From: Candidatus Heimdallarchaeota archaeon | GTDB lineage: Archaea > Asgardarchaeota > Heimdallarchaeia > JABLTI01 | NCBI GenBank assembly: GCA_018238155.1 | Contig: JABCTZ010000017.1 | Coordinates: 1 to 64,000, forward strand | Reading direction: 5' to 3' | DNA: 64,000 nucleotides | Part shown: positions 2,959 to 47,854 of the stretch, in pieces | Numbering within the stretch: the stretch's first letter is position 1 | Layout of the letters: the number at the start of each line of letters is the position of its first letter | Notes under the pieces: model-generated | Told to the model about the DNA's origin: nothing | What the model saw: the letters and a program-made list of their open reading frames with translations, nothing else | Databases searched by the model: none | Program-made: the position numbers and the translations under genes

Positions 2959-3014
2959 TAAAAAAACAATTAAAAATCGTAAACGATACTATTACATTAT
3001 CTGAGGGAAAAACA

Positions 3015-7370: not shown

Positions 7371-8671
7371 TTTTCAGCCCTCATTTTTTTGTATATTTCA
7401 ACAGATTCAGAACCCACTTGTCTGTAGGGTTGAATAAAATCATAGAAATCTTTTGCATCTTGCACTAGACTCATATCATCTTCATCTGCTCCTTTCATCC
7501 AGTTTGAATGAATTGCATTGCTGATGAATCCACCTCCAATGACGACATTTTGCATCATTGCTGCTATTTCTTCATCTGGCATTGATTGGATTGATTTTTT
7601 ATTCAAATCAGCAACATAGCGGAAACTTTGTAAGAAAGTATTTTCATTAAATTTGCCCATGAAGTTTTCTTCTAAGAACTCTGCTGAGAAATCGTTTGCT
7701 TCAATTGCTTTTGCTGCTACTTCAGCTGCATAGATGCCCGTGAAAAATGCTTCTGGCATTCCTTCACCCAGGAACGGAATTACGAATCCTCCCGCATCAC
7801 CAGTTAGGATCAATCTGTTTTTCGTTCTTTTTTCAATTCCTTCATCATATTCGAGATGCAATCCCCATGCTTCTACTCGTCCCCCTTCTAGTTTTTCTTT
7901 AATCACTGGGAGATTGATGAGATTCTGCATGTAATCATTAACTGATTTAATATCTCCTTTGAATAATTCATCATCCATATAGCCACCTGTTCCGATTGTG
8001 ACTACATCTTTCTTTGGAAAGATCCACGGCCATGTCTTGTGTTGAGTATTGGGTGCTAAGAAATAATAGATTGAATTACCAAATCGTTCATTGACAACTT
8101 CCTCTCCTAACCAGACATTCAGGATGGTATAGAGAATCATATTTTTTCCTTTTCTCTTTGGAATAAGTCCTGCTTTTCGACCAATTATTGAATTTACTCC
8201 TGCGGCATCAATAATCACTTTTCCGAAGTATTTTTCACCCGAATCAGTTACTACTCCGGTAATCGTTCCATTTTCTTCAATGATGTCAATAACGGTTGTT
8301 GATAGCTTAACTTCTGCTCCTGCTTTCTTTGCTTCTTCAGTGTGCCACGCATCGAATTCGTCTCTTCTTACAGAAAGCAAAATTAATCCTTCACTAGGGG
8401 TTTCACGCATCATTGTTGTTCTTTCTGGTGTTACCATGTAGGAATGCATTTCAGTTATTTCACGTTCAACTGGTCCTTTCATTAAATAATGTAAATCAGG
8501 ATCAATCAAAGCAGCCATATTCAAACAAGTACCAGAAACGTTTTTCTCTCCTGGTTTTTGAGATTTTTCTAAAAGAAGAACTTTCAAGCCGAGCTCTGCA
8601 GCTTTCTTTGCTGCTGCCGGTCCCGCACATCCAGCGCCAACTACTATAATATCATATTCAGAGTTTCCCAT
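7367..8671 (-). CDS. FAD-dependent oxidoreductase, geranylgeranyl reductase/FixC family
   Basis: VVGAGCAG, RDEFDAW, WPWIFPK, TGDAGG...GEGM; overlaps the ferredoxin start. Confidence 0.85.
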   Translation of the reverse strand: MGNSEYDIIVVGAGCAGPAAAKKAAELGLKVLLLEKSQKPGEKNVSGTCLNMAALIDPDLHYLMKGPVEREITEMHSYMVTPERTTMMRETPSEGLILLSVRRDEFDAWHTEEAKKAGAEVKLSTTVIDIIEENGTITGVVTDSGEKYFGKVIIDAAGVNSIIGRKAGLIPKRKGKNMILYTILNVWLGEEVVNERFGNSIYYFLAPNTQHKTWPWIFPKKDVVTIGTGGYMDDELFKGDIKSVNDYMQNLINLPVIKEKLEGGRVEAWGLHLEYDEGIEKRTKNRLILTGDAGGFVIPFLGEGMPEAFFTGIYAAEVAAKAIEANDFSAEFLEENFMGKFNENTFLQSFRYVADLNKKSIQSMPDEEIAAMMQNVVIGGGFISNAIHSNWMKGADEDDMSLVQDAKDFYDFIQPYRQVGSESVEIYKKMRAEK

Positions 8672-9040
8672 AGGTGGTTCAACTATTTATTGTTGGTAAT
8701 ATTATGAATAGGCAGAGTGTTCCTTAACTCAAACCTAATATTGTTGGAAATAATGTTTTCATTAGAACTTGGTAGTTTTTAACATTTTCCCATTAAGTAT
8801 CAATTTAACAGTTCCACTTAATCCTAGATACAATAACCTTGGATTAATGGTTTGGAATTTAACGGTAAAATTTTTATCTATTTTAAAAGCAAAAGATACG
8901 TTTTAGGAATCCAATGTGCATTTCTTCTGCTGAAATAAGAAATACAACTAGAATTTCATTATTGTTTTACTTCCACTTTATCAACCATTTGTTGAACACC
9001 AACTTATTAATATCAAATCTATTTTTCAACTGGTGGTAAT

Positions 9041-9739
9041 ATGAAAATTATTGGTATTTGTAGTAGTCCATCTATAAACGGTAACACTGGCGTTTTAGTA
9101 AAAAGCTTACTAGGTGAATTAGAAAATCTTGGAGCTGAAATTGAGTTCATTGATTTAGCTCGAGAAGAATTGCAGTTCTGTCGAGGTTGTATGTCCTGTT
9201 TGCGAACTGGTCAATGTATCATCCCCGATTCTCTGAATGAAATACGGAATAAGATGGCTGTTGCTGATGGACTCATCCTTGGTTCTCCCTCTTATGGTAT
9301 CCGACCAAATGCTATTATGAAGAATTTCCTTGACCGCGTTGGTTTGTTTAACGCATATGCTGCAATGTTTGGTGATAAGTACATTATTGGAGTATCAACA
9401 GCTGGTGGAATCGGTGCAAAACAAGTTGCGAAACAACTTACTGATCTTGTCATTTGTCCATTCAAGCAAGGTAAAATCGTAGGTACACTTCATGCTCATG
9501 TAGGAGTTAAAAGAGTTGAAGAATTACCTGATATCGACAAGAAAATTTCAAAACTTGCGCTAAAGATGTTCAATGCAATTGAACGAAAACGTCGATTTCC
9601 TTTTCAGAAATTATTCAAAAAAATTTTGTTTGGAATATTGTTGAGAAGAATCTTCATTAATAATCTAATGAGAAATAAGGATGGTCGAATGAAAGCAGTT
9701 TATGAGTATCTTATTGAAAAGAAAATACTTGCTGCTTAA
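9041..9739 (+). CDS. Flavodoxin-family / iron-sulfur flavoprotein
   Basis: SSPSINGNT, CRGCMSC...C, GSPSY. Confidence 0.85.
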   Translation: MKIIGICSSPSINGNTGVLVKSLLGELENLGAEIEFIDLAREELQFCRGCMSCLRTGQCIIPDSLNEIRNKMAVADGLILGSPSYGIRPNAIMKNFLDRVGLFNAYAAMFGDKYIIGVSTAGGIGAKQVAKQLTDLVICPFKQGKIVGTLHAHVGVKRVEELPDIDKKISKLALKMFNAIERKRRFPFQKLFKKILFGILLRRIFINNLMRNKDGRMKAVYEYLIEKKILAA

Positions 9740-20627: not shown

Positions 20628-23615
20628 ATGGAAAACAAAGTAACGCTATTCCAAAAGATAACGCTCGATAATCTAATGCTACATGAATTCACTGAAGTTG
20701 ACTTAGCAAAAGAGTCAATTACATTGATTACTGGAGCAAACGGTTCTGGAAAAACGCAAATACTTGATGGAATTATTATTTGTATCGGACATATACCTAC
20801 TCGAGCAAAGGCTAAAGGGATTGGGAGTTTGGTTGGGAAAAATGGTAAAAATGCGAAAGTAACCCTTGAATTAGCAAATCCAATAGTAAACTCTCGTAGA
20901 GCAATTACTACCATGGATAAAGACCTTAATGCAGTAATTAATTCTGATCGTTTTAAAATAAATGCTAAAATATCTAGAAATGATAGTTCGATTATCTATT
21001 CAATAAATAATTCTCGGACAATTATTAGAGGACGGTTAGTCTCTAGGAGAGATATTAGACGAATTTTCGAATCAATTGGTGTTCGAGGTGACAATCGATT
21101 GGCATTTACAGGAGAAGGTACTGTAGATGAATTTGCTTCAAAGAGTGCAAAACGAAAATTGGATGTTCTATTAGATGTTACTGGTCTTAAACAATACAGA
21201 GAAGAAGTAATCGCTTCTCAAGATACACTCAGAGCAAGCATTCAAGAAATTGAACCATTAAAGAGAAAATTAGAGACAGAAGGAAAGCTCCTCAACCTAT
21301 GGAATGATGCATTGAATATTCTAAAACAAAAAAAGAAATTAATGATAATGAAAACCAATTTGCAAAACGAAATGGCTTGGTCTTATGTTATACGATTAGA
21401 AAAAAGAGTAGAGGGTCTGAATAAAGAGCGATTAAAAATTCTAAAACAAAGAAGCGACAATGAATCCGCAATTCAAAAGAAGGATGAAGAGATAATCATT
21501 CTTAGACGAAAACTAAATTCGTTAGATGACGAATTGGATTCTTTTGAGGAACAGCAAAGAGTAAAAAATAGACGAGTAATAACTCTCGAGACTCAATTAG
21601 AAAATGATGAAGATAACATTGCTAGTTTCCAAAAGGAAATTGTAAGATATTCTGAGCAAAAACAACAAATGGAGTCTCTATTAGCAAATAAGGATTTGAG
21701 TGCCAAGGATCTAAAAATTCAAGATAAACAAGAAGCTCTTGCAGTAAAATTAAAGAAACTTTCAATCCTTCAAGAAAAATGTTCTAGAGCCGAAAATGAA
21801 TTAAGACTTTTACGAAAACAAATTATCAATGAACCGGATTTTGATTCATTCACTTCTAATGAGGAAGTATTCGCGGGGAAAAGATTAACCAAATATGAAA
21901 ACGAAATGGTTCACGCTTCACAAATCTTCCTGCAAAAAGTGAAGCAAATTTCAAAATCTGACGAAATTGCAGGACCAATAATTTCTCTAATTAAGATAAA
22001 AGATGGGCATAAATCTTGGGAAAAAGCAGTAAAAACTATCATCGGTCGAAATCTCTATGCATTTATTGCTAAATCAGATGATGCTTACAGGTTGGCAAAA
22101 CGGATTTATGACGAAACATGGCCTAGATGGAAACCCCCATTATCAGTATACAAAGTTTCAGCAGAAGATGCCCAAAGAGCAACTATCACTACAAAAAAAC
22201 CTTCGTTTAAGGAAATTTATAACATAGCTGCTAATCTAATAGAGGGAGACCCTTTTGCAGTTGGATTCTTGAAAAGAACAACAAGAAATGCATTAGCAGA
22301 AGATAAATACGATCCAAATAGCTTAACCGGTATTGCTAAGCTAATTAAAACTAATATTTTAACAAAATCAGGTAAAAGTTATTACCTTTATCATGGCGGT
22401 TTCGGAAGACCGCCCGTACCGATTAATAATCCATTAGGATATCAATTAAAACCACAAACCGGTAAAACTAGAATTTCTTTTTCAAATGAACGAAAAATAA
22501 GAGTAGAAATTGCTAAATTAGAAAAAGAAAGGAGAGATCTAAAATTCGATGAAATTCAAACAATGGGTGCGATTTCAAAATTACATCAAGAAGTTCAAGC
22601 ATTAGGATTGCCTGATGAAAAAATAATCGGTAAAATTGAAACAATAAACGAACTGATTGCTAATATTGAAGCAAAAGCTGCAGAAATCAAATCACATTAT
22701 AATCAACTAGATTCTGATCTGAATATTGCTACAACTGCTTTTACTTCTTTCAAAAACTCTAAAGGAGAAATTACTCTAAGAATTGACGAAATTGCGGAAA
22801 CAATGGATTTACTAAGAATCGAACAACATAGCTTAAAAGAAAAAGGATCGAGATTATTAACTCTCGAACTAAATTATGATGCTGAATATGAGGAATTTAT
22901 TGAAGATAAAAAAGAACGAGAAGAAACCGCAAAGCGAAAAGGAGAACGACCCGAAGAAATTAGAAATTACTCTGACATTAGAGATGAGCTTAATAGAATA
23001 GAAGGACATCTCGAGTCAATTGGTATAAGCAATGTTGATGAAGACAAAATCGAAGATCAAAAAACAAAGGTCGAATCTCTTAAGAAATATATGACTGAAA
23101 GAGAGGAGCATATTACTCGATTACGTGCTGATTTAGAAGCAAGATTAGCCTTTTGGAATGGTGAATTGCAAGAAATAATAACTAACATCTCAAGAGCGAT
23201 GAAACTACTTCTAGGAGGGATTTTTGATAAGATTCGTTTGAAAGTAACAAATATCAACAAACCTGATGAGGCTGGCTTATTCATTGAAGCCATTACTAAA
23301 GGAGATGACTTTAGGGATTTCCGTGAATTAAGCGGAGGAGAAAAAGTACTTGCCATTGAAGGTCTAATTCTTGCTATGCATACTCTCACAGATTCTCCAA
23401 TTCATGCTATTGATGAATTTACTCAAAGATTAGATGAAAAAAATAAAGCACTAGCCTTTAGTATTGCAATTAGGACACAGAAATTAGCTAATGAAAATTC
23501 TCGTTTTATACCTCAATTTATTCTTTTGTGCCCAGAAGCTCTTGATGTTAAACTCTCAGAAAGCATACATCATGTAGTTGTATCAGAAATGAAGGTGATG
23601 AAAGCTGAACACTGA
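20628..23615 (+). CDS. SMC-family ATPase, Smc5/6 (ClsN/coalescin)-like
   Basis: Walker A GANGSGKT; coiled coils; hinge GPIISLIKIKD..WEKAVKTIIGRNLYAFI; signature LSGGEK; SPIHAIDEFTQRLD, like Smc6 SPFRCLDEFDVFMD. Confidence 0.88.
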   Translation: MENKVTLFQKITLDNLMLHEFTEVDLAKESITLITGANGSGKTQILDGIIICIGHIPTRAKAKGIGSLVGKNGKNAKVTLELANPIVNSRRAITTMDKDLNAVINSDRFKINAKISRNDSSIIYSINNSRTIIRGRLVSRRDIRRIFESIGVRGDNRLAFTGEGTVDEFASKSAKRKLDVLLDVTGLKQYREEVIASQDTLRASIQEIEPLKRKLETEGKLLNLWNDALNILKQKKKLMIMKTNLQNEMAWSYVIRLEKRVEGLNKERLKILKQRSDNESAIQKKDEEIIILRRKLNSLDDELDSFEEQQRVKNRRVITLETQLENDEDNIASFQKEIVRYSEQKQQMESLLANKDLSAKDLKIQDKQEALAVKLKKLSILQEKCSRAENELRLLRKQIINEPDFDSFTSNEEVFAGKRLTKYENEMVHASQIFLQKVKQISKSDEIAGPIISLIKIKDGHKSWEKAVKTIIGRNLYAFIAKSDDAYRLAKRIYDETWPRWKPPLSVYKVSAEDAQRATITTKKPSFKEIYNIAANLIEGDPFAVGFLKRTTRNALAEDKYDPNSLTGIAKLIKTNILTKSGKSYYLYHGGFGRPPVPINNPLGYQLKPQTGKTRISFSNERKIRVEIAKLEKERRDLKFDEIQTMGAISKLHQEVQALGLPDEKIIGKIETINELIANIEAKAAEIKSHYNQLDSDLNIATTAFTSFKNSKGEITLRIDEIAETMDLLRIEQHSLKEKGSRLLTLELNYDAEYEEFIEDKKEREETAKRKGERPEEIRNYSDIRDELNRIEGHLESIGISNVDEDKIEDQKTKVESLKKYMTEREEHITRLRADLEARLAFWNGELQEIITNISRAMKLLLGGIFDKIRLKVTNINKPDEAGLFIEAITKGDDFRDFRELSGGEKVLAIEGLILAMHTLTDSPIHAIDEFTQRLDEKNKALAFSIAIRTQKLANENSRFIPQFILLCPEALDVKLSESIHHVVVSEMKVMKAEH

Positions 23616-24510
23616 AGATGATACCAACAACATTGAATTTATAATAGAATCTAATTCAGATGAATCTTTAGTAGATGTAATTGAAAACAATGACAATACC
23701 TCCAAACTAAAGAAGGTCAAAGATAAAATTAAATCTCCAAAGAAAAAGACTTCTTCAGTTTCTAGTATAGAGAAGAAATTATGGAATGTCGCTAAAAAAT
23801 ACAAGTCGTTTTTCGATAAAGATGAAGTCCCCCAAATTGCTGAAAGTGAAGAAGATCGCCAAGAAGTATCTGATGCTTATTTGGAAGTTTCAACAAAGCG
23901 CCATAGACAGCTAGATTCACGCGTTTATTACTCTTTGACAAAAATGCAAAGAACACGAGATGCAAAAGTTGCTTTAGAAGGGACGACAGAGAAAGATAGA
24001 TTAAGAATGATTGCTTGGGAAGTAAAAATTCGTCTTCAACCGATTATTTTTGCTGTTGGTGATAGTACAATAGAAATGGACATTTTTAATCTTCATGAGA
24101 CAGGGGCTGATGTTAGAATTATTGAGGGAAATAGTCAAGAATTGCTGATTGAAGATAATGTCCTTGATGAGAACAGCATTGCAATACTTGATGATTTACC
24201 TCTTAGAAAACTAACAAAAGATCAGAAAACAAAATTGAAAAGAGAAATTATCGAGAAATTTGTTGGAAAGGTTTTTTCAAGAGATGATTTTAATAGAAAG
24301 CTCAACAGCCTTTATGCAGATTTGATTTCTTTAATGGTGCGTGAAAAACAAATCATCATTTTAAAACAGCAAGATAATAGATTCAAGCTTATACACGTAG
24401 AACATGAAGAAGCTATTGACTTAGAACATCTAGTTAGTCAATCACTTGTAATTATACCAAAAATGGTTCAACTACAGAATGTAGCTATTAGAAGGAGTAA
24501 GAAGAAATGA
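23605..24510 (+). CDS. Putative kleisin (Nse4/ScpA-like) subunit, probable CTG start
   Basis: Frame open 92 codons upstream of the track start; GGTGA 6 nt before CTG at 23605; C-terminal DDFNRKLNSLYADLISLMVREKQIII resembles the Nse4 C-terminal winged helix; directly after smc. Confidence 0.55.
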   Translation: MNTEDDTNNIEFIIESNSDESLVDVIENNDNTSKLKKVKDKIKSPKKKTSSVSSIEKKLWNVAKKYKSFFDKDEVPQIAESEEDRQEVSDAYLEVSTKRHRQLDSRVYYSLTKMQRTRDAKVALEGTTEKDRLRMIAWEVKIRLQPIIFAVGDSTIEMDIFNLHETGADVRIIEGNSQELLIEDNVLDENSIAILDDLPLRKLTKDQKTKLKREIIEKFVGKVFSRDDFNRKLNSLYADLISLMVREKQIIILKQQDNRFKLIHVEHEEAIDLEHLVSQSLVIIPKMVQLQNVAIRRSKKK

Positions 24511-25136
24511 TTGATAATAGATTAGAAGATTACGAAGAAGTGACAGAAAATACTCGAGATTCATCTGAAGTAGAAGAAAAATTAACAGAAGATTTTGGAG
24601 AAATGGACCCCCAGTTATTTGTTGCATTATCTTCGCGTTGGAGAAAAGAAAATGGCTCACTTGCTTTTGGTATAGAAAAACGACAACTACGTAATAAGAC
24701 AGGCTTAACGTTGATGGAACTTGAAACGCTGCTTGAAGATTTTGGCAAAAAAGTAAAAAGAATAGGATTGGAACTAATTTCATATGTTGAGAATAATCAA
24801 GAATGGTATTGTTTACGCTCGATATTTGTTGTTCCAAATGAATTGTCATTGGATGAACAAGCAGTACTAGGTACAATTATTTTCTTAATAGAGAAAAAAA
24901 CTGATCATCGAAGAAGGGAAGAAACACCAATTACTTCAACTGAATTAATTGCAAGATTGGTAAAAAGGGGCTACTACTCTGAATATACATTAACGAAAAT
25001 TCTACGTAGATTAGATAATTCTGGGTATGTTAGGCGAGGGGGAAATAAAATACGCTATGGAGCAAGAACAAAAATTGAGATTTCTTCTGATAGACGAAAA
25101 GAAATTGCTGATAGAACTGAGGGAATGCTACTTTAA
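24507..25136 (+). CDS. KITE subunit (tandem winged helix; Nse3/MAGE/Nse1-like)
   Basis: IGLELI, VLGTIIFLIE and YGARTKIEISS resemble MAGE/Nse3 FGxELxE, LxxILGLI and WGPRTxLETSK; overlaps upstream gene by ATGA. Confidence 0.7.
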   Translation: MIDNRLEDYEEVTENTRDSSEVEEKLTEDFGEMDPQLFVALSSRWRKENGSLAFGIEKRQLRNKTGLTLMELETLLEDFGKKVKRIGLELISYVENNQEWYCLRSIFVVPNELSLDEQAVLGTIIFLIEKKTDHRRREETPITSTELIARLVKRGYYSEYTLTKILRRLDNSGYVRRGGNKIRYGARTKIEISSDRRKEIADRTEGMLL

Positions 25137-25156: not shown

Positions 25157-25648
25157 ATGGCCGTTGTAACAACTACTACTGTTTCGGTGAGGTGTGCGGG
25201 GCACAATGGTAGAGCTACGCTAAAAGAAGCGGTAGAAGCAGGTTGGCGTATGTGTAGAATTTGTAGGTCATTTATCTGTCCAAAATGCATCGAAGAATTT
25301 GATTTGAAAATGAATGGAACTTGCCCATCGTTTATTTTTGGAATGGACCAACACCAGCTTAGTCCAGGGCCTATTCCCGTTGAAGAAGTAATTCTATTTG
25401 CAGAATCAAACAAACAAGAAGGAATTACCGGTGGGTTGTTAGAAGCACTCTTCTTTGAGGATGAGCAAATGGGTTTTATGCCTTTTTATGCTGCTATTGA
25501 AAAGAAAAAGAAAGAAGAAGAAGAGACGGATGAAGATGAATTGAGTTTAGAACCTCCAAAAATACAAGAAGAAATGTGGTCGTCTTTTGGATTTGTAATG
25601 ACTAAAAGAAGACGAGGAAAATTCATTACTTGGGAGAAAATCGGTTAA
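25157..25648 (+). CDS. RING-like Zn-finger protein (Nse1-RING-like spacing), candidate E3
   Basis: C13-x2-H-x16-C-x2-C-x4-C-x2-C-x11-CP-x8-H66. Confidence 0.6.
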   Translation: MAVVTTTTVSVRCAGHNGRATLKEAVEAGWRMCRICRSFICPKCIEEFDLKMNGTCPSFIFGMDQHQLSPGPIPVEEVILFAESNKQEGITGGLLEALFFEDEQMGFMPFYAAIEKKKKEEEETDEDELSLEPPKIQEEMWSSFGFVMTKRRRGKFITWEKIG

Positions 25649-25681: not shown

Positions 25682-26317
25682 GTGACAAAAAAACAACAAA
25701 AACAAAAAAAATTACTTTCCGAATTACTTGGTGAAGTCGCACCTGAAGAAACCCCTTCAGAACAAATTGAAGAGGAATCTCAAACTGTTGATAATGAAGA
25801 GCTTACTGAGGAAATTTTAGAAGAATATCCATTAAATGAAATATATTCGGTATACATTCTACATAGAGTCGTTTATGAAACAATAGTTATGTGTAAGAAA
25901 GCTATTCCAAATGAAGCAATTGGTATTCTCTTAGGATATAAAATGCGATACAAGGGGAAAAATTATGTCAAGGTAGTTGATTGGGTCACAGGTAAAGCAA
26001 ACCAAAGTCAAGCTTTTGCAGAATTTACTCCTGAGGGTGTAAGACAATACACTACACTAATTGATGAAAGATATGGAGAAAGTGAAAACCGACCAAGAAT
26101 AGTGGGTATAATTCATTCACATCCATTTGGGTCTAATCCACATTTCTCCAGAACGGATTATAATACCTTTCTGAATTTTCCCTATGATGCAGAGCACAAT
26201 GTATTCGTTTTAGTAGATCCGAAATCTGGTTACTACAAAACATACATGGTTCTTACAAATGAGGAAAAACAAAAGGATTTGATCGAAGTAAACTGGATTG
26301 AATATACAGCACGATAA
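25682..26317 (+). CDS. JAMM/MPN+ metallo-isopeptidase
   Basis: EAIGILLG and IVGIIHSHPFGSNPHFSRTD (HxH..SxxD). Confidence 0.92.
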   Translation: MTKKQQKQKKLLSELLGEVAPEETPSEQIEEESQTVDNEELTEEILEEYPLNEIYSVYILHRVVYETIVMCKKAIPNEAIGILLGYKMRYKGKNYVKVVDWVTGKANQSQAFAEFTPEGVRQYTTLIDERYGESENRPRIVGIIHSHPFGSNPHFSRTDYNTFLNFPYDAEHNVFVLVDPKSGYYKTYMVLTNEEKQKDLIEVNWIEYTAR

Positions 26318-26329: not shown

Positions 26330-27184
26330 ATGACTGAAAAACCACTACATGTAGGATTTTACGAGGATGACCTTGAAGATCGTACTCGAAGATATTATGG
26401 AATAGATAACCTCAAACGAATTAAAGATAGCACAATTTTGTGTGTCGGTGCCGGAGCTGTTGGAAATGAGGTTTGTAAAAATCTTGGTATGTTGGGTGTA
26501 GGTCATATTCGTTTAGTTGATTTTGATATAGTAAGTAAATCAAACATAAATCGTTGTATATTTTTCAGACCTGAGGATCACAAAGAAATTTCAAAAGTTG
26601 AAGCTGTAACAAAACGATTGCCGGAAATTGTCCCAAATACAAAGATTACTCCCTATAATGTGAGAATAGAAGAAGCACCCCTAGAAGTTTATGATGCTGA
26701 TTTAATTATTATGGCATTGGATAATGACTATGCAAGGTATATGTTAAATTTCGCTGATTTAATGTTAGAAGTACCCATTCCAATTGTTAATGGTGCTATG
26801 GGAAGATCATTTTTAGAAGCGGAAATATATCTCCCAGGTGATACTGCTTGTGCAGTTTGCTTATGGAGTGAGGATTATTATCGTTCAATAATGACTCATC
26901 AAGTAACGCTAAAATGTGATGAATTTTTTATTGACACATTACCTAAATTTCCAATGATCAGTACATTGACTTCAATTGTTGGTGGGATTATGTCTGTTGA
27001 AGCAACTAAAATTCTCATTAGTAGCGATGGAACTGGTAAATACCCGAATATTACAAAAGGGCAAGAACCAAACTTCGGTAAAATGATTAGATATGATCTT
27101 AGAAATCATGAATTAACTATTGGGAATATTATGCCAAATCCAAAATGTGTAGATGTAACATGCAGAGCAAGGCGAAAAAATTGA
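26330..27184 (+). CDS. ThiF/E1-like ubiquitin-like protein activating enzyme
   Basis: GAGAVG, DFDIVSKSNINR, CAVC, candidate catalytic Cys in LKCDE, PNPKCVDVTC. Confidence 0.9.
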   Translation: MTEKPLHVGFYEDDLEDRTRRYYGIDNLKRIKDSTILCVGAGAVGNEVCKNLGMLGVGHIRLVDFDIVSKSNINRCIFFRPEDHKEISKVEAVTKRLPEIVPNTKITPYNVRIEEAPLEVYDADLIIMALDNDYARYMLNFADLMLEVPIPIVNGAMGRSFLEAEIYLPGDTACAVCLWSEDYYRSIMTHQVTLKCDEFFIDTLPKFPMISTLTSIVGGIMSVEATKILISSDGTGKYPNITKGQEPNFGKMIRYDLRNHELTIGNIMPNPKCVDVTCRARRKN

Positions 27185-27312
27185 CGCTCACATCGGTAAT
27201 TTCCATCAATCAAATATTTGATGGAATATCAAAGATGCAGAGCAGCATCCATACAGTTGTAATAATAAATTACTCTGTAAAAATAAAAAAAATCAACTAA
27301 AGGTGTTAATAA

Positions 27313-27624
27313 ATGAGCGAAGAAATATGGCGTGAAATAATCGTTGACGTAGAGCCTAGACAAAAAGAGTTTAGGGTAGCAGTTGAAGAAGAATCTACTA
27401 TAGATGAAGTTGTCAAAACATTAGTACAACGATGTGTAGATGAAGGTGTAGACATTTCCAAATGGGCTAAAGAAAAGGTAGGACAACCAAATGTTAGTTT
27501 CGTGTTAATGCGAAAATCAACAGGTAATACTGCCTTACCTCCTGCAGTAACTTTTGGTTCATTAGAACCAATACTCGAGACAAATGAACGCTTTAAACTT
27601 GATGCATGTGCTCAAGTTGGATAA
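27313..27624 (+). CDS. Ubiquitin-like beta-grasp modifier ending in Val-Gly
   Basis: ESTIDEVVKTL, GNTALPPAVTFGSL and ETNERFKL parallel ubiquitin SDTIENVK, GKQLEDGRTLSDY and QKESTLHL; C-terminal Gly; lies between E1 and E2. Confidence 0.75.
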   Translation: MSEEIWREIIVDVEPRQKEFRVAVEEESTIDEVVKTLVQRCVDEGVDISKWAKEKVGQPNVSFVLMRKSTGNTALPPAVTFGSLEPILETNERFKLDACAQVG

Positions 27625-27722: not shown

Positions 27723-28502
27723 GTGAAAAAAATTTCAAGAGCAAATTTCCCGGCGACTGTAGTAAACGCAAGAATAGCCGAATCGATAAATGTCTTTTAT
27801 GATTCGATGGAAGATTTCTTCAAAAAAGAAGGATGGAAATGGCAACCATTCGCACGAAAAGGTGACAAATGGGTACAAGAAGATTATACAGTAGAAATAA
27901 CTGGGAAATATCAAGATGGCGCATTTAGAGAGATACTCTTTACTGCTAGAAGAACTCCGGGTTTAATTGGACAATCAACTAAAAAGGATAAAATGAATAT
28001 CGGTTACATTCACAAGTTCTCGATATATCTACCCAGGGTGTATCCTGCAAACTTGTCCCACATAAAAATGAAAGTTATATCACGACTTTGGCATCCAAGA
28101 ATATCCATGTCTGGTAGAGGAGATGCTTGTATAACCGTAAATGGTGAAGTGGATAGAATTTTGATTGATTTGATTTACCATCTATTAATGGACCCAAAGA
28201 GAATACGTCCACCAAAACTATATCCAAAAGAGGATTCGGGTATGAATACAGTAGCTATGCGTTGGTTTGAAAAAGATGCAGAAGATATACATAAAGCAAT
28301 GCTAGTAAATTGGGATACAAAACACGAAAAAACTTCTTTGAAAGATGGTGGTGGTGGAATAAAGATAATCGGTGGAGATAACAAAAAGCAGGAAAGCAAA
28401 GGAAAGAGTGCAATCAGAATCATTCCAAAAAAGATTGAGGAAACAAAAGAATCCTCACAAAAGAAAGAGAAAAAGAAGAAGGGTGGCATGCGTATAATTT
28501 GA
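27723..28502 (+). CDS. E2 ubiquitin-conjugating (UBC-fold) enzyme with basic low-complexity tail
   Basis: FSIYLPRVYP...LWHPRISMSGRGDACI (HPN-like motif plus catalytic Cys), MNTVAMRWF. Confidence 0.8.
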   Translation: MKKISRANFPATVVNARIAESINVFYDSMEDFFKKEGWKWQPFARKGDKWVQEDYTVEITGKYQDGAFREILFTARRTPGLIGQSTKKDKMNIGYIHKFSIYLPRVYPANLSHIKMKVISRLWHPRISMSGRGDACITVNGEVDRILIDLIYHLLMDPKRIRPPKLYPKEDSGMNTVAMRWFEKDAEDIHKAMLVNWDTKHEKTSLKDGGGGIKIIGGDNKKQESKGKSAIRIIPKKIEETKESSQKKEKKKKGGMRII

Positions 28503-28795
28503 AAAAAAGGACGAATGTGCAAGCAAACGATGAATTCGATGAGTTTACCTTCGAAATTAGCTCATCAAATGCAAATGATGAGATAATTGAAGAAATTGAA
28601 AGCCTAGATCTGATAGATGAAAACATTGAAGATAAACCCAAACAAAAAACGATTAAAATTCTATCTGAAAGGGATATTCAATACAGAGAATCACCACCTC
28701 CAAATTATTATCCAAAATTCAAATGTATTTTACATTATAAAGGTGGGAACTATCGGAAAAGGAAAATACTCAAGGTAGCACATCAGGAAGACTAG
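28499..28795 (+). CDS. Small acidic/basic hypothetical protein, last gene of the operon
   Basis: TTG start overlapping the E2 stop; acidic N-half, basic C-half. Confidence 0.55.
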   Translation: MKKRTNVQANDEFDEFTFEISSSNANDEIIEEIESLDLIDENIEDKPKQKTIKILSERDIQYRESPPPNYYPKFKCILHYKGGNYRKRKILKVAHQED

Positions 28796-28940: not shown

Positions 28941-30659
28941 TTGACAAAAACTATTGTTCTAAAAGTAAAAGGTTTGTCACATGAAGATGTATGTAATATT
29001 GTGAGGAATAATTATCAATTAACCCTCTCTGAACCTGTTAAGAAAAAAATACGATTAGCTAGAAAAGCAATTGAGATATCTGTGGAATCAGGACAGAAAG
29101 TCTATGGAATTACTACCGGTTTTGGCTCTCTAAGGGATATCGTTATCCGAGAGAAAGATGCTGAACAATTACAGATAAATTTAATCAGAAGCCACTCTGT
29201 TGCTGTGGGTGAACCCGCAAAAGATGAACAAGTAAAAGCAATGATGGTTCTACGCGTTACTGCTTTGGCTAGAGGGAACTCTGGTTGTCAGCTCTCTACA
29301 GTAGAGAATCTAATTGCTATGATAAATGACAATGTATTACCTATCATTCCAAGTAAGGGATCTGTTGGCGCAAGTGGTGATTTAGCTCAACTTTCACATA
29401 TGGCATTAACAATGATTGGGGATGGTCATAATAACCTAAAATATAAAGGTAAAATATATGATGCTAAAGATGGTTTGAAAAAAGCAGGCATCCCTATAAC
29501 AAAATTATCATACAAAGAAGGCTTGGCTTTAAATAATGGTGTACAATATTCTGCTGGAATAGCATGTATGGCTATAAAGGATTCATATAATCTATTAGAG
29601 AATTCGCTAATAGCGCTTGCATTAACAATGGAAGCTCTAAAAGCTGCAAAACAACAGTTTGATGAGAGAATACATTTAGCAAGAAATCATCCTGGACAAA
29701 TAGCAATTGCTCGAAAAATAAGAGCATTCTATAAAGGGAGCAAATTAGTAAAAATCTATGGGGATGTCTATACTTGTCCCGAAGAATTTTGTGGATACTA
29801 TTACGATTCTGAAATGGGCGATTCAAATCGTGGAATTAAAGAATGGACTCTTTTTGAAGATTTGCCTGAAGATTGGACTTGTCCAAAATGCGGTTTAGTA
29901 AAGAACACTTTCATAAAAACACTGCCAAAGTTGCAAGATGATTATTCAATCCGATGTTCACCACAAGTACTTGGACCAATAAGTGATGTGATGGATAATA
30001 CTAGAACAATATTATCTCGAGAGATAAATGCTGCAACAGATAATCCTTTGATTTTCATTAAGAGGGAAGATCCACTAGAATTTGATATTTTTTCCGGTGG
30101 CAATTTTCATGGGGAACCGATAGCAATTGCTATGGATCATCTAGCTATAGCAATGGCAGAATTAGGAAACATTGCAGAAAGACGATGTGCAAAATTAGTT
30201 GACGGTTCTAGGAATGAGGGCTTGGGTGCATTTCTAATCCATAGAGAAGCTTTAGGATTAAATAGTGGTTTTATGATGCCTCAGTATGTCACCGCCGCAC
30301 TTGCTTCTGAAAACAAAGTATTAGCTTCTCCTGCTTCAATAGATTCAATACCAACTTCTGCAAATGCTGAAGATCATGTAAGTATGAGTCCAATTGCTGC
30401 AAGAAAAGTTGTTGCAATAAATGAAAATTTAGTCTATATTATTGCTATAGAAATGATGCTAGCTGCACAAGGTGTAGATTTAAGATGCCAAATACAAAGC
30501 TTGACTCCAAAAGATGCTCTAGGTGATAAGACTTTCAAAGCTTATCAATTTATAAGAAGTATAATTCCAGTATTAACTCATGATAGAATAATTTATACCG
30601 ATATAGAAAAACTAGCTAAAAAAATAATTGATGGAAGTATTGTAAAATCAATTTCATGA
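28941..30659 (+). CDS. hutH: Histidine ammonia-lyase with an inserted rubredoxin domain
   Basis: VYGITTGFG, LIRSH, MIO motif GASGD, QDDYSIRC, GGNFHG, EDHVSM; insert CPEEFCGYYYD...FEDLPEDWTCPKCG. Confidence 0.88.
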   Translation: MTKTIVLKVKGLSHEDVCNIVRNNYQLTLSEPVKKKIRLARKAIEISVESGQKVYGITTGFGSLRDIVIREKDAEQLQINLIRSHSVAVGEPAKDEQVKAMMVLRVTALARGNSGCQLSTVENLIAMINDNVLPIIPSKGSVGASGDLAQLSHMALTMIGDGHNNLKYKGKIYDAKDGLKKAGIPITKLSYKEGLALNNGVQYSAGIACMAIKDSYNLLENSLIALALTMEALKAAKQQFDERIHLARNHPGQIAIARKIRAFYKGSKLVKIYGDVYTCPEEFCGYYYDSEMGDSNRGIKEWTLFEDLPEDWTCPKCGLVKNTFIKTLPKLQDDYSIRCSPQVLGPISDVMDNTRTILSREINAATDNPLIFIKREDPLEFDIFSGGNFHGEPIAIAMDHLAIAMAELGNIAERRCAKLVDGSRNEGLGAFLIHREALGLNSGFMMPQYVTAALASENKVLASPASIDSIPTSANAEDHVSMSPIAARKVVAINENLVYIIAIEMMLAAQGVDLRCQIQSLTPKDALGDKTFKAYQFIRSIIPVLTHDRIIYTDIEKLAKKIIDGSIVKSIS

Positions 30660-31115
30660 AAATTAAATTGACCAAATCTGGCGAGTCGAGAGCTCGCTTC
30701 TCTCTTCCACCAGTATTTTCATTTTCTTAATCACTTTATTTAATCAAAAAACTAAAAAAAACCAGTACTTCTTTCTTCTTCAGTTTTTAATAAAAACTGT
30801 TGGTATTATTCCTCCAATACCTATCATAGCTAAATGAATTATGATTTCTGAAGGTGTTATTTTGGTATGTGCATTAGAATCGATAACTGTTATAGTATCC
30901 ATTGTATTTTATCCAATAATACCGTGACCATAGCCTTTGAATACGTCCAAATGTAAATACCTTTTTTGTACAAAAGAATCTTCAAGTTAATAGTAAAAAC
31001 TGCTTTTTGTGGGTAGAATGTGGGGTAACGAACCAATCCTATCCCATGCTTTCTAGATAAAGATTTTAAACTTAGCTCAAATACTTTGACAATCATTCAC
31101 TTTAGGTGGAAAAAC

Positions 31116-32639
31116 ATGACCTATACAATCAAAGGTGCTGGACTAACAATTGAAGATGTTGTAAAAGTCGCACGACATAATGAAAAAGTAAAGTTGCATC
31201 CTGACGCAATAAAACGCATGCAAACATGTAGAGATATGGTCGAAGAAAAAATCGAAGCAAACGAAGTTATGTACGGAATAACAACAGGAATTGGTGAATT
31301 CTCAGAGACATTTCTTAAAGGTGAGGAAGTCAAGTTATTCCAGAAATATTTGATATATAATCACGCTGCAGGTATTGGTAAAGCAGCTCCTATTGAGCAT
31401 GTTCGTGCTGCTATGCTAGGTAGACTCAATGTTCTCGCACATGGAAATTCTGGTAACAGAGTAGTAATTGCTGAAACATATGTTGAAATGTTGAATAAAG
31501 GAGTCACTCCAGAAGTTTGTGAAAAGGGTTCTGTTGGTGCTTCTGGTGACTTATGTTCCATGTCACAAATAGCTTTACTTCTTATGGATGAAGGAAGAGC
31601 TTTCTATAAAGGTAAATTATTGCCTGGAAAAGAAGCCTTGGCTAAAGCAGGAATCAAAGCTCCAGGATTAGAACCTAGAGATGGTTTAGCAGCAATTAAT
31701 GGCTCTAATTTTCTTACTGCAATGAGTGCTCTTTGGCTTTATGACGCATTAAGATTCATGAAGCAAGCAGAGATTGCTTGTGCAATGACAATTGAAGCAT
31801 TAATGGGTAATATGAAACCTTACACTCCAAAGCTGCACGAAATTCGCGGCTTCCCTGGCGCAATTAGATCTGCAAAGTCACTTTCAAAACTTTTCAAAGG
31901 AGGGGACTTGTTTGAAGCAAAACTAAAAGTAAAAGTTCAAGATGCTTATTCAATGCGCTCTGCTCCCCAAGTATTAGGTGCTGCTCATGATGCATTAGCT
32001 TGGGCTCGTTCACAAGTGGAAATTGAATTAAATGGCGTTGGAGATAATCCTATCTTCTTCCCCGAAGAAAAATTAACACTCACTGGAGCAAACTTCCAAG
32101 GAACTCCTGTTAGTTTACCATTTGATATGGCTGGTGCAGCAATTACTATGGTCTGTGTTATGTCTGAAAGACGTATGAATAGATTAAATCATCCAGCACT
32201 TAGTGTAGGTTTACCACCATTCCTAACAAAAGGAGCAGGATTAATGTCTGGTTTGATGTTAAGTCAATATACTGCAGGTATGCAAATCGTTGAAATGCGA
32301 ATCTTATCCGCTCCTGCAAGCATCCAATCTATTCCAGCAGCTGCAGATCAAGAGGACTTCGTTTCAATGGGAATGAATACTGCTCTCAAAAACAATCAAA
32401 TTTTGGATAATGCTTATGGTGTTCTTGGTATAGAGCTTATGGCAGCTGCACAAGCTTTGGATTTCAGAGAATTCAAATTTGGTGATGGTGTAATAAAAGC
32501 CAAAGAAGTAATTCGAAAACATGTTGATTTCCTTGACGAAGATAGACCATTGTTTGACGATCACAATGCTATGAAAGCATTGGTCAAATCATGTGAAATT
32601 CTCGAAGAAGTTGAAAAAGAAATTGGCAGTTTAGATTAA
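31116..32639 (+). CDS. Second aromatic amino-acid (histidine) ammonia-lyase paralog
   Basis: MYGITTGIG, YNHAAG, GASGD, QDAYSMR, GANFQG, QEDFVSMG; ATG at 31116 after AGGTGG. Confidence 0.88.
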   Translation: MTYTIKGAGLTIEDVVKVARHNEKVKLHPDAIKRMQTCRDMVEEKIEANEVMYGITTGIGEFSETFLKGEEVKLFQKYLIYNHAAGIGKAAPIEHVRAAMLGRLNVLAHGNSGNRVVIAETYVEMLNKGVTPEVCEKGSVGASGDLCSMSQIALLLMDEGRAFYKGKLLPGKEALAKAGIKAPGLEPRDGLAAINGSNFLTAMSALWLYDALRFMKQAEIACAMTIEALMGNMKPYTPKLHEIRGFPGAIRSAKSLSKLFKGGDLFEAKLKVKVQDAYSMRSAPQVLGAAHDALAWARSQVEIELNGVGDNPIFFPEEKLTLTGANFQGTPVSLPFDMAGAAITMVCVMSERRMNRLNHPALSVGLPPFLTKGAGLMSGLMLSQYTAGMQIVEMRILSAPASIQSIPAAADQEDFVSMGMNTALKNNQILDNAYGVLGIELMAAAQALDFREFKFGDGVIKAKEVIRKHVDFLDEDRPLFDDHNAMKALVKSCEILEEVEKEIGSLD

Positions 32640-35499: not shown

Positions 35500-37212
35500 G
35501 TGTATTATTTGCAAATTAAAGCGTTCAAATTAACTATGACCGGTGAAATAGCAATAACTAAAACTACTCCAATAAGTAGTGGAGAACTGCTCAGGTTAAT
35601 GGTCATCCCAGTAATGAACGATTCAGAAATTGTAAATGCTTCCAAAGTTGAAGTTCTAAATCCGTATGAAATTAGAGTTGTTGATTCTAGATTACCTGTA
35701 TTTGATCAAACAAAAGTTGTTTATTTTGATATCACAATTCCAAAAAATTGGTCTAGTGGACGCTATTTAACTAGTGTACTGTGTACTAATGGAAAAATAA
35801 TAACCAGTTGCTATTTTTATTTTCAAGCGGGGAAAAATGCTCATGTAATAAATCGAATACAAAACCCAAAATGGATTCTTAATTATTCGTTAAATGTGAA
35901 AAATGTCAGTGAAAAACCAGTGGGTAATTTTTCAGCATTTATTGCGTTACCATTAACTATTTCTCCACAGCAAATAGTAAGCAATTTACAAATTCATCCC
36001 AGTAACCTAACTATATCAACCGATGTAGAAGGAAACCATTGGACACATTTCTCAGTAAAAAGAATGGAAGCAAAAGAATCGCGTTTATTGAGCTATAGTG
36101 CTGAAGTTGAAATGAAACCTTTGATTATCCCTCAAAGGATTTCTAAAATTACGAAAACAAATCCCTACGAAAGAAAATTCTTGCAAAATTATCTGCAACC
36201 TGAACCACATATTGAAAGTGATCATCTTAAAATAGTGAAGATGGCTGCAAATATTCCAAATAATGATCCGCTCACCTTTGCTAAACGTGCTGCAAAACAA
36301 GTGCAAAAAACAGTTAAATATGAAATACAACCAGGAGAATTCGGAGCAGCTTTTGCTATTGAAAAAAGAAAAGGGGATTGTACTGAATTTGCTGCATTAT
36401 TTGTTGCTCTTTGTCGAGCTGCTGGCATTCCAGCAAGAACAAATGCCGGTTTTGCTTTAGCCCAAAGATGGGAGAGGCACGCAACTGCAGAATTCTTAGT
36501 TCAAGGAAGGTGGATTCCTATAGATCTCACTATGCAGAGAAGCAGTGAAATTATTCTCGGATCTTTACCACTAAATATTATCGTTACTCGAGGTAACTGG
36601 ATGGGTGGAACTTTAGCTAAAGAAGTAGCTTACAAATATCAAGTTATAGAACCTAAACAGAAAGTAGATATTGATATTCTCTGGAATATTGTTCTTAGCA
36701 ATGGGAATAATCACTCAACAACTAATCATTCTGCAATAAATAAAACAGTTAAAATTATTGATCCACAAATTTTTAACTCATCAAAAATTAAACCAAAAGT
36801 AATTGAGCAAAGCAAAATAAAAATTTTAGTCGAAAATGAAGGACAAGAAGTTGATTTTATAAAAGTAACTAAAAATAAACCAATTGTTCTTTCGAAAAAG
36901 AAGCATAAAATGTTCGAGTTAAAAGTAGAAATGCCTGATGCTATTAAACAAGGTGCCTCTTTTAAACCAAAAATAACTCTTATTAACCATTCAGAAAACA
37001 ATCTCACTGGCTGCTGCGAAATAAGAGAATTTGTGGATGGAATAATCAAAATACGATCAATTGTAGGGAAGAAAATACCGCCGAATTCCCAAAGGACGAT
37101 TAAACCAATAATTAGTTTGGATTCCATTGGAATGAGTGAACTAGAAATTATTTACAGCAATCGTATTGGAAGAGTGCTATCCAGAATATCTGATTTGATA
37201 AGTCTTTATTAG
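35500..37212 (+). CDS. Transglutaminase-like (papain-fold) protein with flanking beta-sandwich domains
   Basis: GDCTEFAALFVALCRAAGIPAR, HATAEF, WIPIDLT (Cys-His-Asp triad). Confidence 0.88.
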   Translation: MYYLQIKAFKLTMTGEIAITKTTPISSGELLRLMVIPVMNDSEIVNASKVEVLNPYEIRVVDSRLPVFDQTKVVYFDITIPKNWSSGRYLTSVLCTNGKIITSCYFYFQAGKNAHVINRIQNPKWILNYSLNVKNVSEKPVGNFSAFIALPLTISPQQIVSNLQIHPSNLTISTDVEGNHWTHFSVKRMEAKESRLLSYSAEVEMKPLIIPQRISKITKTNPYERKFLQNYLQPEPHIESDHLKIVKMAANIPNNDPLTFAKRAAKQVQKTVKYEIQPGEFGAAFAIEKRKGDCTEFAALFVALCRAAGIPARTNAGFALAQRWERHATAEFLVQGRWIPIDLTMQRSSEIILGSLPLNIIVTRGNWMGGTLAKEVAYKYQVIEPKQKVDIDILWNIVLSNGNNHSTTNHSAINKTVKIIDPQIFNSSKIKPKVIEQSKIKILVENEGQEVDFIKVTKNKPIVLSKKKHKMFELKVEMPDAIKQGASFKPKITLINHSENNLTGCCEIREFVDGIIKIRSIVGKKIPPNSQRTIKPIISLDSIGMSELEIIYSNRIGRVLSRISDLISLY

Positions 37213-47170: not shown

Positions 47171-47854
47171 CTAGCTTATTTGTGTGATGATCTGAAGTTG
47201 TTTGCGAATTCGGAGATAATTTTTAGCAAAATCGGTAGCAGAATAATCTGCCCAGTGGAACTTCTCCTCGCAATCAAAGAGCTCCTCTTCAAGATGTAAC
47301 TTTCGACGTTCAAGATATTTTTCACGTTCTGAGCTTCGATCAAGAGATGAACGACCACTCATTCCTGCACGAATACTAGCTAGCTCTTGTTCTTTTTGGC
47401 GTAGAACTTCCTCAAGTTGAGCTTTCTGTCGAGTGAAAACTTTAATTGCGTTAGCAGGTTTTGAGGCAGCTGAAATTGGTCTAGCACCTTTCTCAAGTAA
47501 ATGTCTCGCAGGGCGGAGAGGCTCTCGAGCAAATAACCCTTTAATGGAATTTGCAACTTGGAATATATGATACTCTGGATTCCATTTCTTAACAATCCAG
47601 AGGTCAATAATTTTGCCTTCAGTAACCCTAGGGTGCTCTACTTCAGAAATCATTTTAACAATAGGAGGAGTAGCGGGAAAACCACCGATAATTTCAATTT
47701 CAACAGTGAAGAAGCGATTGGAAAATTCGCCCCTGCCTGGAATAAGACCTTTCCATCGAGTCATATCACCTTTGATAGGTTCAAACCCACGACCCTTCTC
47801 ATACATCCAACGTGCCTCACGGGCAATGACAAGATCTGGAATATTTTTAATCAT
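47171..47854 (-). CDS. UEV (Cys-less E2 variant)-coiled coil-steadiness box protein, Vps23/Vps37 (ESCRT-I)-like
   Basis: FPATPP...EHPRV..GKIIDLWIV lacks the catalytic Cys; coiled coil; C-terminal EEKF...YSATDFAKNYLRIRKQL; ATG at 47854 preferred over 47989. Confidence 0.72.
   Translation of the reverse strand: MIKNIPDLVIAREARWMYEKGRGFEPIKGDMTRWKGLIPGRGEFSNRFFTVEIEIIGGFPATPPIVKMISEVEHPRVTEGKIIDLWIVKKWNPEYHIFQVANSIKGLFAREPLRPARHLLEKGARPISAASKPANAIKVFTRQKAQLEEVLRQKEQELASIRAGMSGRSSLDRSSEREKYLERRKLHLEEELFDCEEKFHWADYSATDFAKNYLRIRKQLQIITQIS

Follow-up and report, generated by a model that had tools for sequence, protein, structure and literature searches.

Eukaryotes have their closest known relatives in the Asgard archaea, and each ubiquitin-like protein (Ubl) system found there therefore bears on the origin of eukaryotic protein tagging. 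To our knowledge, SMC5/6 is alone among the SMC complexes in carrying SUMO and ubiquitin ligase subunits, and the reason for this is an open question. The accessible part of PMC6043591 describes an operon of the Caldiarchaeum subterraneum type, which encodes ubiquitin, an E1, an E2, a RING E3 and an Rpn11-like JAMM protease. In the accessible part of PMC1779556, the E2 of the Bil-type class 6d lacks the classical His, and YukD, EccD and TmoB are not known to be conjugated or to have E1 or E2 partners. Some Asgard archaea have a second, SMC5/6-related SMC operon with its own kleisin and kite, according to the available portions of PMC8665677 and 10.1101/2024.01.07.573240; in these portions, the former does not use the word "ubiquitin" and the latter regards the Nse1 RING and Nse2 as having been added in eukaryotes. 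The window analysed here (the whole stretch of 64,000 nucleotides, positions 1 to 64,000 of contig JABCTZ010000017.1) has a GC content of about 34%, belongs to a Heimdallarchaeota-type Asgard genome that is 90.7% complete, and carries a Ubl cassette next to a second SMC operon.

Nine plus-strand genes lie head to tail between positions 20628 and 28795, in the order SMC-p209a-p209b-Zn-JAMM-E1-Ubl-E2-p98. The last five of these encode a JAMM protease, a minimal E1, a Ubl ending in Val-Gly, a UBC-fold E2 and a partner protein of 98 amino acids (aa), which we read as a Ubl cassette that constitutes a family of its own and has been inserted beside a four-gene second-SMC operon (probability about 0.7). 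What the analysis itself shows are the folds, the catalytic-type residues with their conservation, the matching distribution across genomes, and a linkage that survives rearrangement. The genes are real, because related contigs share the complete gene order, with the Ubl kept best. The features are, with the possible further member given last:

20628..23615, plus strand: SMC-like ATPase, 995 aa, the second SMC paralogue of the genome (Pfam SMC_N 5.8e-20, weak hinge match)
23881..24510, plus strand: p209a, 209 aa, kleisin candidate from position alone, conserved directly 3' of the SMC gene
24507..25136, plus strand: p209b, winged-helix protein of 209 aa, kite-like candidate (weak MarR-type winged-helix matches, residues 138-188)
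25157..25648, plus strand: zinc protein, 163 aa, RING/FYVE-like, with eight conserved Cys/His (alignment A9, weak Pfam matches)
25682..26317, plus strand: JAMM/MPN+ metalloprotease, 211 aa (Pfam Prok-JAB)
26330..27184, plus strand: minimal ThiF-type E1, 284 aa (Pfam ThiF, invariant residues in alignment A6)
27313..27624, plus strand: ubiquitin-like modifier (Ubl), 103 aa, Val-Gly end (model, fold searches, family alignment)
27723..28502, plus strand: divergent UBC-fold E2, 259 aa, with HPR...AC motif and disordered tail (model, VIA-align, conservation)
28499..28795, plus strand: p98, 98 aa, following the E2, with a conserved PPPN[YF]-x-P motif and one [KRT]-I/V-x-I-L motif
35500..37212, plus strand: transglutaminase-core protein, 570 aa, possible further member (Pfam Transglut_core 1.6e-20)

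The Ubl has 103 aa and ends in ...FKLDACAQVG followed by the stop codon, with neither di-Gly nor a tail, just as an earlier reading made from the letters alone (the sequence-only reading) had it. The insertion that this reading placed after helix 1 appears in the AlphaFold2 model (8-row alignment, mean pLDDT 86.3, pTM 0.76) as a second helix at residues 48-56, following strands at 7-13 and 18-24 and a helix at 30-43, and followed by strands at 61-67 and 92-100. The predicted beta-grasp fold was borne out, as Foldseek and VIA-align returned only beta-grasp domains for the model. SUMO1 was the top Foldseek match (2.7e-04), followed by TouB/TmoB, ubiquitin and EccD. With VIA-align the best structural matches were TouB/TmoB (Z 11.7-10.5 over 82-85 residues; TouB 11.7 over 85) and the EccD5 Ubl (Z 11.2 over 87 residues), in alignments that span the extra helix, and SUMO1, ubiquitin, ISG15, Caldiarchaeum ubiquitin and a bacterial Ubl were found at about Z 10.3. 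A wide fold search over 48,161 representative chains gave the same ranking picture. At the sequence level, Pfam yielded no ubiquitin-like family above noise for the Ubl, including no match to PF00240; PDB searches with the Ubl alone and with a 27-row profile found nothing significant, the nearest entry being 5zmb, a "ubiquitin-like protein" (E 0.16); and the ESM Atlas gave sub-threshold matches only (TmoB cluster at 0.87).

Relatives of the Ubl were collected by a word-based search, which found 11 close ones, and by an exhaustive profile search of 1.84 billion representatives, which found 34 at E <= 0.001; 24 of the 34 were retrieved. The family alignment A3 has 27 rows, from which we left out fragments and near-duplicates (P0002, P0006, P0009-P0011, P0142, P0151, P0154, P0155, P0160), two proteins whose C-terminus looks frameshifted (P0137, P0144), one with an aberrant N-terminus (P0149), and long multi-stretch or repeat proteins (P0157-P0159, P0162). 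Val at the penultimate aligned position is invariant, and it is followed by Gly in 22 rows and by Ala in 5. Val-Gly/Ala is the true C-terminus in 15 of the 27; the other 12 are extended by 1-2 residues, by tails of about 50 aa, or by the E2 itself (P0139, 301 aa; P0147, 297 aa). The Ubls of family f16, a sister lineage, for example, end in PEVG plus L, F or IK. Pfam YukD is weakly matched by 6 of the 27 (best 0.021). Across loci L013-L021 the Ubl is the best-kept protein of the cluster, with 89-99% identity compared to 78-95% for the E1 and 63-90% for the E2; between L016 and the window, identity is 93% for the Ubl, 81% for the E1, 65% for the E2 and 64% for the JAMM. Such strong conservation is typical of ubiquitin-like modifiers.

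The E1 matches Pfam ThiF (PF00899) over residues 23-265 (E 9.9e-39, 133.3 bits against a cut-off of 28.1). With 284 aa in all, there is therefore no room for a C-terminal ubiquitin-fold domain, the absence of which had been correctly noted. The motif PNPKCVDVTC that was said to end the protein is present, but it is not the terminus: the real end is ...PNPKCVDVTCRARRKN, six residues further. The E1 has the GxGxxG nucleotide loop and the Mg-binding Asp (D131) of the ThiF/E1 superfamily, and in a 23-row E1 alignment (A6), with members from several Asgard groups, the GAGAVG loop, D64, R75, K89 and D131 are invariant, as are six cysteines (Cys76, Cys174, Cys177, Cys196, Cys273, Cys278). These cysteines are best read as a predicted CxxC...Cx4C four-Cys site and a candidate catalytic Cys196, 19 residues after the first pair. 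The accessible part of PMC10712953 gives Cys250 as the active site of UBA5 and Cys303 as a buried structural residue. The window E1 is 33% identical to the canonical E1 paralogue of its own genome (CxxC) and 26% identical to an E1 found beside Asgard UFM1-like genes (Cx2C); the Cx4C pair is a trait of the E1 family that is absent from these two. In the PDB the highest scores are for a UBA1-type E1 (69.6 bits) and MoeB (62.9), then UBA3, SAE2 and ThiF, with UBA5 at 43.8; the UBA5 match is the one that reaches furthest into the E1 (query 25-230, E 2.2e-10). When the last 115 or the last 145 residues of the E1 were compared with the PDB, no match was obtained.

An E1 of this kind could also belong to a sulfur-carrier pair, in which the Ubl would be thiocarboxylated by the ThiF-like enzyme for cofactor synthesis or tRNA thiolation, as are ThiS, MoaD, Urm1 and SAMP. 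The top three NCBIfam matches of the E1 are indeed ThiF, MoeB and the SAMP-activating E1, the Ubl is a beta-grasp protein with a free C-terminal Gly, and JAMM proteases also accompany sulfur carriers (table rows 4b-4e in the accessible part of PMC1779556). However, all three NCBIfam scores are far below the equivalog cut-offs (ThiF 91.5 versus 275 bits), Pfam finds no rhodanese domain in the E1, and the conserved module contains no rhodanese domain, sulfurtransferase or cofactor-synthesis gene. The Ubl ends in Val-Gly rather than Gly-Gly, the E2, whose Cys is invariant, is never missing and is at times fused to the Ubl, and the genome has a separate MoeB/ThiF-like protein of 248 aa. We therefore regard a sulfur-carrier function as improbable.

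The structural model of the E2 has pLDDT >90 over most of residues 10-200, with a tail (209-259) below 50. VIA-align places it with classical E2s (Z 8.8-9.4 over 130-140 residues), and the best matches of the wide fold search were UbcH10 (Z 8.8), UBE2K (8.7), UbcH5b (8.5) and Ubc9 (7.9). H124, P125, R126, A135, C136 and N140 are invariant, giving the active site HPR-x9-AC; since His124 is among them, the E2 keeps the classical His. Pfam UQ_con (PF00179) is weakly matched by 12 of the 16 E2 family members (best 6e-04). Three copies of a conserved G-[IVM]-[KR]-I-I motif lie in the disordered tail, and the protein ends with the last of them. Similar strand motifs (e.g., R-V-x-I-L) occur in p98 of all three lineages and, within f16, in the E2 tail and the second zinc protein; in L073 the stretch concerned is 8078-9443. 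SUMO-interacting motifs bind by strand addition, and the motifs seen here appear to resemble them. The p98 gene follows the E2 gene in the lineage of the window as well as in families f16 and f9; p98 itself has no family match in Pfam or NCBIfam.

The protease matches Pfam Prok-JAB (PF14464; 4.6e-09, 36.6 bits against a cut-off of 25) and the NCBIfam desampylase model (2.1e-05). In its translation (...EAIGILLG... and ...HSHPFGSNPHFSRTD...) the metal-site motif of Glu, HxH, Ser and Asp can be seen, and the protease is paired with the E1 in 22 of 23 E1-centred loci. Its proposed role as a deconjugase, and not a maturase, stood in part. Because the Gly is already free in the window Ubl, the window JAMM would reasonably act as a deconjugase. 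The proposal does not extend to the family, in which 12 of the 27 Ubls continue past Val-Gly/Ala; since the tailed f16 Ubls and the Ubl-E2 fusions need a processing protease, the JAMM would be a maturase in much of the family.

That the modifier is separate from canonical Asgard ubiquitin, as had been proposed, is clear from the genome itself, which has its own ubiquitin, E1 and E2. The canonical ubiquitin (77 aa, ...RTEGG, contig C1) scores 49.9 bits with PF00240. The canonical-type E1 paralogue, of 333 aa with CxxC...CxxC and a C-terminal extension, is encoded in the window at 55391-56392 on the minus strand, and the genome also has an HPN-type E2 of 157 aa and UEV-like proteins without a catalytic Cys. 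A UEV-like gene product, with a UQ_con fold lacking the catalytic Cys plus a coiled coil, is encoded at 47171-47989 on the minus strand of the window.

The Val-Gly end had also suggested kinship with UFM1 and UBA5, and this suggestion did not survive. It would imply an archaeal UFM1-type system, with the Ubl a relative of UFM1, the E1 a relative of UBA5 and the E2 in the place of UFC1. Mature UFM1 ends in Val-Gly, the window E1 is minimal, without a ubiquitin-fold domain, and its second zinc pair is Cx4C, a spacing that UBA5 probably shares. The reach of the UBA5 alignment along the E1 might be counted on the same side. The accessible supplement of PMC12962969 contains a Lokiarchaeal protein whose best structural matches are UFM1 (4-90) and UFC1 (101-265), similar to the P0139 and P0147 fusions. 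Nevertheless, at E <= 10 none of 27 Ubls matches Pfam Ufm1 (PF03671) and none of 16 E2s matches UFC1 (PF08694). In the wide fold search with the E2 model, UFC1 ranks 34 (Z 6.2) and 40 (Z 5.6), behind classical E2s at Z 8.8-7.9, and it is not among the best 50 matches of the Foldseek-based E2 searches. In three fold searches with the Ubl, UFM1 did not reach the best 50 matches, although 111 representative chains have Z >= 8 and it may rank lower. The E1 is matched better by UBA1, MoeB, UBA3, SAE2 and ThiF than by UBA5; it stops six residues past its last Cys, without the UBA5-type C-terminal extension that binds UFM1 and UFC1.

What tells most against the UFM1 label is that a separate UFM1/UFC1-like system exists in Asgard archaea. 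Seven of the 201 Asgard genomes on which all counts below are based have matches above the curated cut-off of Pfam UFC1 (6.3e-10 to 3.5e-06), and the Ubls of this family match Ufm1 weakly (0.044-0.061). Their loci (L095-L101; G118:C84, G033:C451, G160:C7, G040:C36, G003:C33, G026:C1, G074:C1) encode JAMM proteins of 334-352 aa, Ubls of 87-92 aa that end in RGVVG, and either a UFC1-like E2 (3.4e-06) or Ubl-UFC1 fusions of 258-273 aa. At L095 a ThiF E1 of 278 aa with CxxC...Cx2C lies beside the UFM1-like genes; it is the E1 that shares 26% identity with that of the window. The next gene at L097 encodes an EAP30/Vps36-family winged-helix protein (1.7e-09). Alignment of the two systems with hhalign gave probabilities of 3.3% for the Ubl families and 5.2% for the E2 families. 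G118 and G033 carry both the UFM1-like and the window-type module, at separate places, and the window's own genome, 90.7% complete as it is, has no match above noise to either UFM1-system profile. The Asgard Ufm1 homologues in the accessible part of PMC12962969 would fit the L095-L101 type better. The UFM1-type reading is thus largely refuted, and we consider it highly improbable. The window system adds a third class to the Asgard modifiers, the other two being ubiquitin and the UFM1/UFC1-like system. Ubiquitin and the Val-Gly system occur in one lineage, and the Val-Gly and UFM1-like systems in others, thus several modifier classes diverged already in archaea.

With an E1 orthologue threshold of E <= 1e-92, the E1 is present in 23 genomes, the Ubl in 22, and both in 21. 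Two genomes (80-81% complete) have the E1 alone, among them the 80%-complete genome of f14, and one has the Ubl alone. Both proteins are found in 2 of 3 genomes of the window's genus, in the only genome of f9, and in 18 of 19 of f16. The SMC paralogue is present in 47 of the 201 genomes and the winged-helix protein in 42, in the same families. Three Asgard lineages with differing gene orders keep the same set of cassette and SMC-operon genes together. For example, in G067 (f16) JAMM-E1 lies on one strand and transglutaminase-Zn128-p98-E2-Ubl on the opposite one, followed by SMC-p209a-p209b-Zn153; in G004 (f9) the genes are divided between two contigs, with SMC-p209a-p209b-Zn-JAMM-E1 on the first and Ubl-E2-p98 on the second. 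The SMC gene is less than 1.5 kb from the Ubl gene in 17 of 18 f16 loci, and the lone exception is cut by a contig end.

The window SMC is the second paralogue of its genome, since contig C17 encodes a canonical SMC (1213-aa frame), whose hinge match is strong. NCBIfam SMC_prok_A is matched by the window SMC at 1.8e-25, well short of the model's cut-off. A profile built from three orthologues, when compared with the PDB, matched an archaeal Smc head construct at 84.5 bits, human SMC6 at 77.7 and yeast Smc6 at 74.2, the last in one stretch (8-938), whereas SMC3, SMC2, SMC4, SMC5 and SMC1A scored 52.7 to 43.2 bits. By these scores SMC6 is the best eukaryotic match of the profile by more than 20 bits, which at the sequence level agrees with the SMC5/6-related second operon published for Asgard archaea (accessible parts of PMC8665677 and 10.1101/2024.01.07.573240). 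The p209a gene is directly 3' of the SMC gene in L016-L020, L073, L074, L106 and L107, and its product has no match in Pfam, NCBIfam or the PDB; for the two 209-aa proteins together, nothing was matched beyond the winged helix of p209b.

The fourth gene of the operon encodes the zinc protein, with the pattern C-x2-[CH]-x16-C-x2-C-x4-C-x2-C-x11-C-x9-H. In alignment A9 (8 rows) the conserved positions are C13, C/H16, C33, C36, C41 (7 of 8 rows), C44, C56 and H66. Its orthologues weakly match FYVE (0.0039), zf-UDP RING (0.0088) and zf-RING_4 (0.031), and an ESM Atlas search returned nothing usable. On this weak evidence we regard it as a candidate ligase or adaptor. We rejected the zinc protein as a member of the Ubl cassette, as it remains with the SMC operon where the cassette is not found: SMC-p209a-p209b-Zn stands alone in two f2 genomes, therefore the zinc gene is the fourth gene of the SMC operon. 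For the same reason, namely the SMC operon of f2 without the cassette, JAMM-E1-Ubl-E2-p98 is a cassette that was added in some lineages. The winged-helix gene is always followed directly by the zinc gene (24507-25136 and 25157-25648 in the window; L106, L107), even where there is no Ubl cassette. Nse1 combines a winged helix with a RING, and the gene pair might by analogy be a split form of this architecture, which it resembles.

The pairing of an SMC protein with a Ubl cassette could alternatively indicate a defence island, in which an SMC-like complex senses foreign DNA, as in Lamassu and Wadjet, and the cassette tags invader or host proteins, as in Bil and CBASS (Cap2/Cap3). The SMC paralogue matches the Lamassu LmuB model (1.9e-16), but this match is limited to the generic SMC head and coiled coil. 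JAMM and E1 match the CBASS-type JAB and E1-E2 models, and also a 6A-MBL cap2_3 model, and a Bil-type bacterial Ubl is among the structural matches of the Ubl (Z 9.3-10.3). For the Ubl, the E2, the zinc protein and the 98-aa protein, however, PADLOC has no match, and the E2 keeps the His that is absent from class 6d (accessible part of PMC1779556). The distribution is patchy over Asgard families, and relatives occur in bacterial-looking contigs. Within the lineage, on the other hand, the module is near-universal (18 of 19 in f16) and keeps its place, unlike most defence islands, and the Ubl is very strongly conserved, at 89-93% identity in contigs whose E1 reaches 78-86%. A defence function thus seems unlikely to us.

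Several observations weigh against a dedicated Ubl cassette coupled to an SMC complex. The best NCBIfam models for the E1 are sulfur-carrier activators (ThiF 4.5e-26, MoeB 6.9e-23). The window E2 falls below the Pfam UQ_con cut-off (17.1 versus 27 bits; E 0.0042), and its motif is HPR, with Arg replacing the Asn of HPN. The kleisin and kite candidates lack sequence support, PDB profile searches having found no Nse, Scp or Muk protein, and the RING-like matches of the zinc protein are weak (E 0.004-0.4). In f2 the SMC paralogue is present in 19 of 21 genomes and the Ubl in none of 21, therefore the SMC complex does not need the Ubl. A metagenome scan for distant pairs, made with the E2 alignment, located Ubl-E2 pairs next to SecA or an MshEN protein on contigs of bacterial appearance, and the portions covered contain no SMC gene; the Ubl-E2 pair is thus older, or more mobile, than its Asgard association with SMC. 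Adenylation, thioesters, targets and JAMM specificity are all steps that we infer.

The mechanism that we propose for the cassette is predicted in all its steps. The E1 would adenylate the exposed Gly103 and take the Ubl onto Cys196, from which it would move to Cys136 of the E2 and then to target lysines. Plausible targets are subunits or clients of the adjoining SMC complex, for which the zinc protein might act as ligase or adaptor. The hydrophobic strand motifs of the E2 tail and p98 may bind the Ubl non-covalently. The JAMM would strip the Ubl from targets and, in relatives with a tailed or E2-fused Ubl, would also expose the Gly.

We suggest, as a tentative idea that may well prove wrong, that in some Asgard archaea a SUMO-like conjugation machine is dedicated to, and coupled with, a complex of the SMC5/6 type. 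The SMC operon would represent Nse4, Nse3 and Nse1 in split form, as their forerunner or analogue, and the cassette would supply a modifier for the zinc protein to attach to the complex or to clients bound to DNA. In that case the activity of Ubl ligases on SMC5/6 would be older than eukaryotes and not a eukaryotic addition. The linkage of the cassette to an SMC6-like operon with its own RING-like protein is a concrete and testable lead. Our literature search found no report that links an Asgard or archaeal Ubl cassette with an SMC operon, and bioRxiv supplements may hold neighbourhood data.

Further genes surround the cassette and its relatives. The transglutaminase-core gene of the window is situated 7 kb downstream of the cassette, and relatives are found at L073 7212-8081 and L107 10767-11960, both on the minus strand; one relative lies near the SMC operon in G157. 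A transglutaminase-like gene (289 aa) lies beside the E1 gene in 18 of 18 f16 loci, and its product is 36% identical (1.8e-42) to the window's 570-aa protein, which may serve the system as a cysteine protease or as a cross-linking enzyme. Two tandem genes for aromatic amino-acid (histidine/phenylalanine) ammonia-lyases follow p98 at 28941-30659 and 31086-32639 on the plus strand, the first with a rubredoxin domain inserted at residues 277-324 (Pfam 4.8e-14). We rejected the lyase as a module member, its conservation being confined to the window's own lineage. As regards the distant pairs, L087 has a tailed Ubl and E2 at 273-1225 and SecA at 1743-4571, and L086 is likewise a distant pair; at L085 an E1, a Ser/Thr kinase, a 322-aa Ubl-E2 fusion and an 87-aa B-box-like zinc protein occur together.

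We place the Ubl system, as a variant, among the operon-encoded prokaryotic ubiquitin-like systems already known, following the classification in the accessible part of PMC1779556. In its fold, the modifier is most like YukD, EccD and TmoB, which give the best structural matches, extra helix included, and the weak YukD Pfam matches (6 of 27). The Z values for ubiquitin, SUMO and ISG15 are within about 1 unit of theirs, and YukD, EccD and TmoB lack the conserved Val-Gly end.

In Bil (ISG15-like, class 6d) and in CBASS with Cap2/Cap3, as in the window, a prokaryotic Ubl or target goes together with an E1, an E2 and a JAB protease, and the window JAMM and E1 match the corresponding PADLOC models. 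CBASS uses a C-terminal Gly or Ala for conjugation. The window differs in that E1 and E2 are separate proteins, in the classical His of the E2, and in the lack of any PADLOC match for Ubl and E2.

With UFM1/UBA5/UFC1 and the L095-L101 loci, the window system shares the Val-Gly end, a minimal E1 without a ubiquitin-fold domain, the occasional Ubl-E2 fusion and the accompanying JAMM; it is unlike them in having no profile similarity and an E2 fold closer to classical E2s. With SUMO and SMC5/6 (Nse2 as SUMO ligase, Nse1 as RING) it has in common a Ubl conjugation system tied to an SMC complex, the SMC6 match, SUMO1 as top Foldseek match, and partner proteins with hydrophobic strand motifs similar to SUMO-interacting motifs. 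Here the differences are the lack of sequence homology between Ubl and SUMO, a link that in the window is one of gene neighbourhood, and no detected SP-RING.

In the Caldiarchaeum type, as presented in the accessible part of PMC6043591, a beta-grasp modifier, a ThiF-type E1, a His-keeping UBC E2, a small zinc protein and a JAMM are likewise encoded by separate genes, and its ubiquitin is a structural match of the window Ubl (Z 10.3). By contrast, the window modifier ends in Val-Gly instead of Gly-Gly and has an extra helix, and no similarity with ubiquitin is detectable in its sequence. The E1 is without a C-terminal domain and carries Cx4C, and the E2 has HPR and a long tail. In the window, moreover, the cassette is tied to an SMC operon, in a genome that also holds the canonical ubiquitin set.

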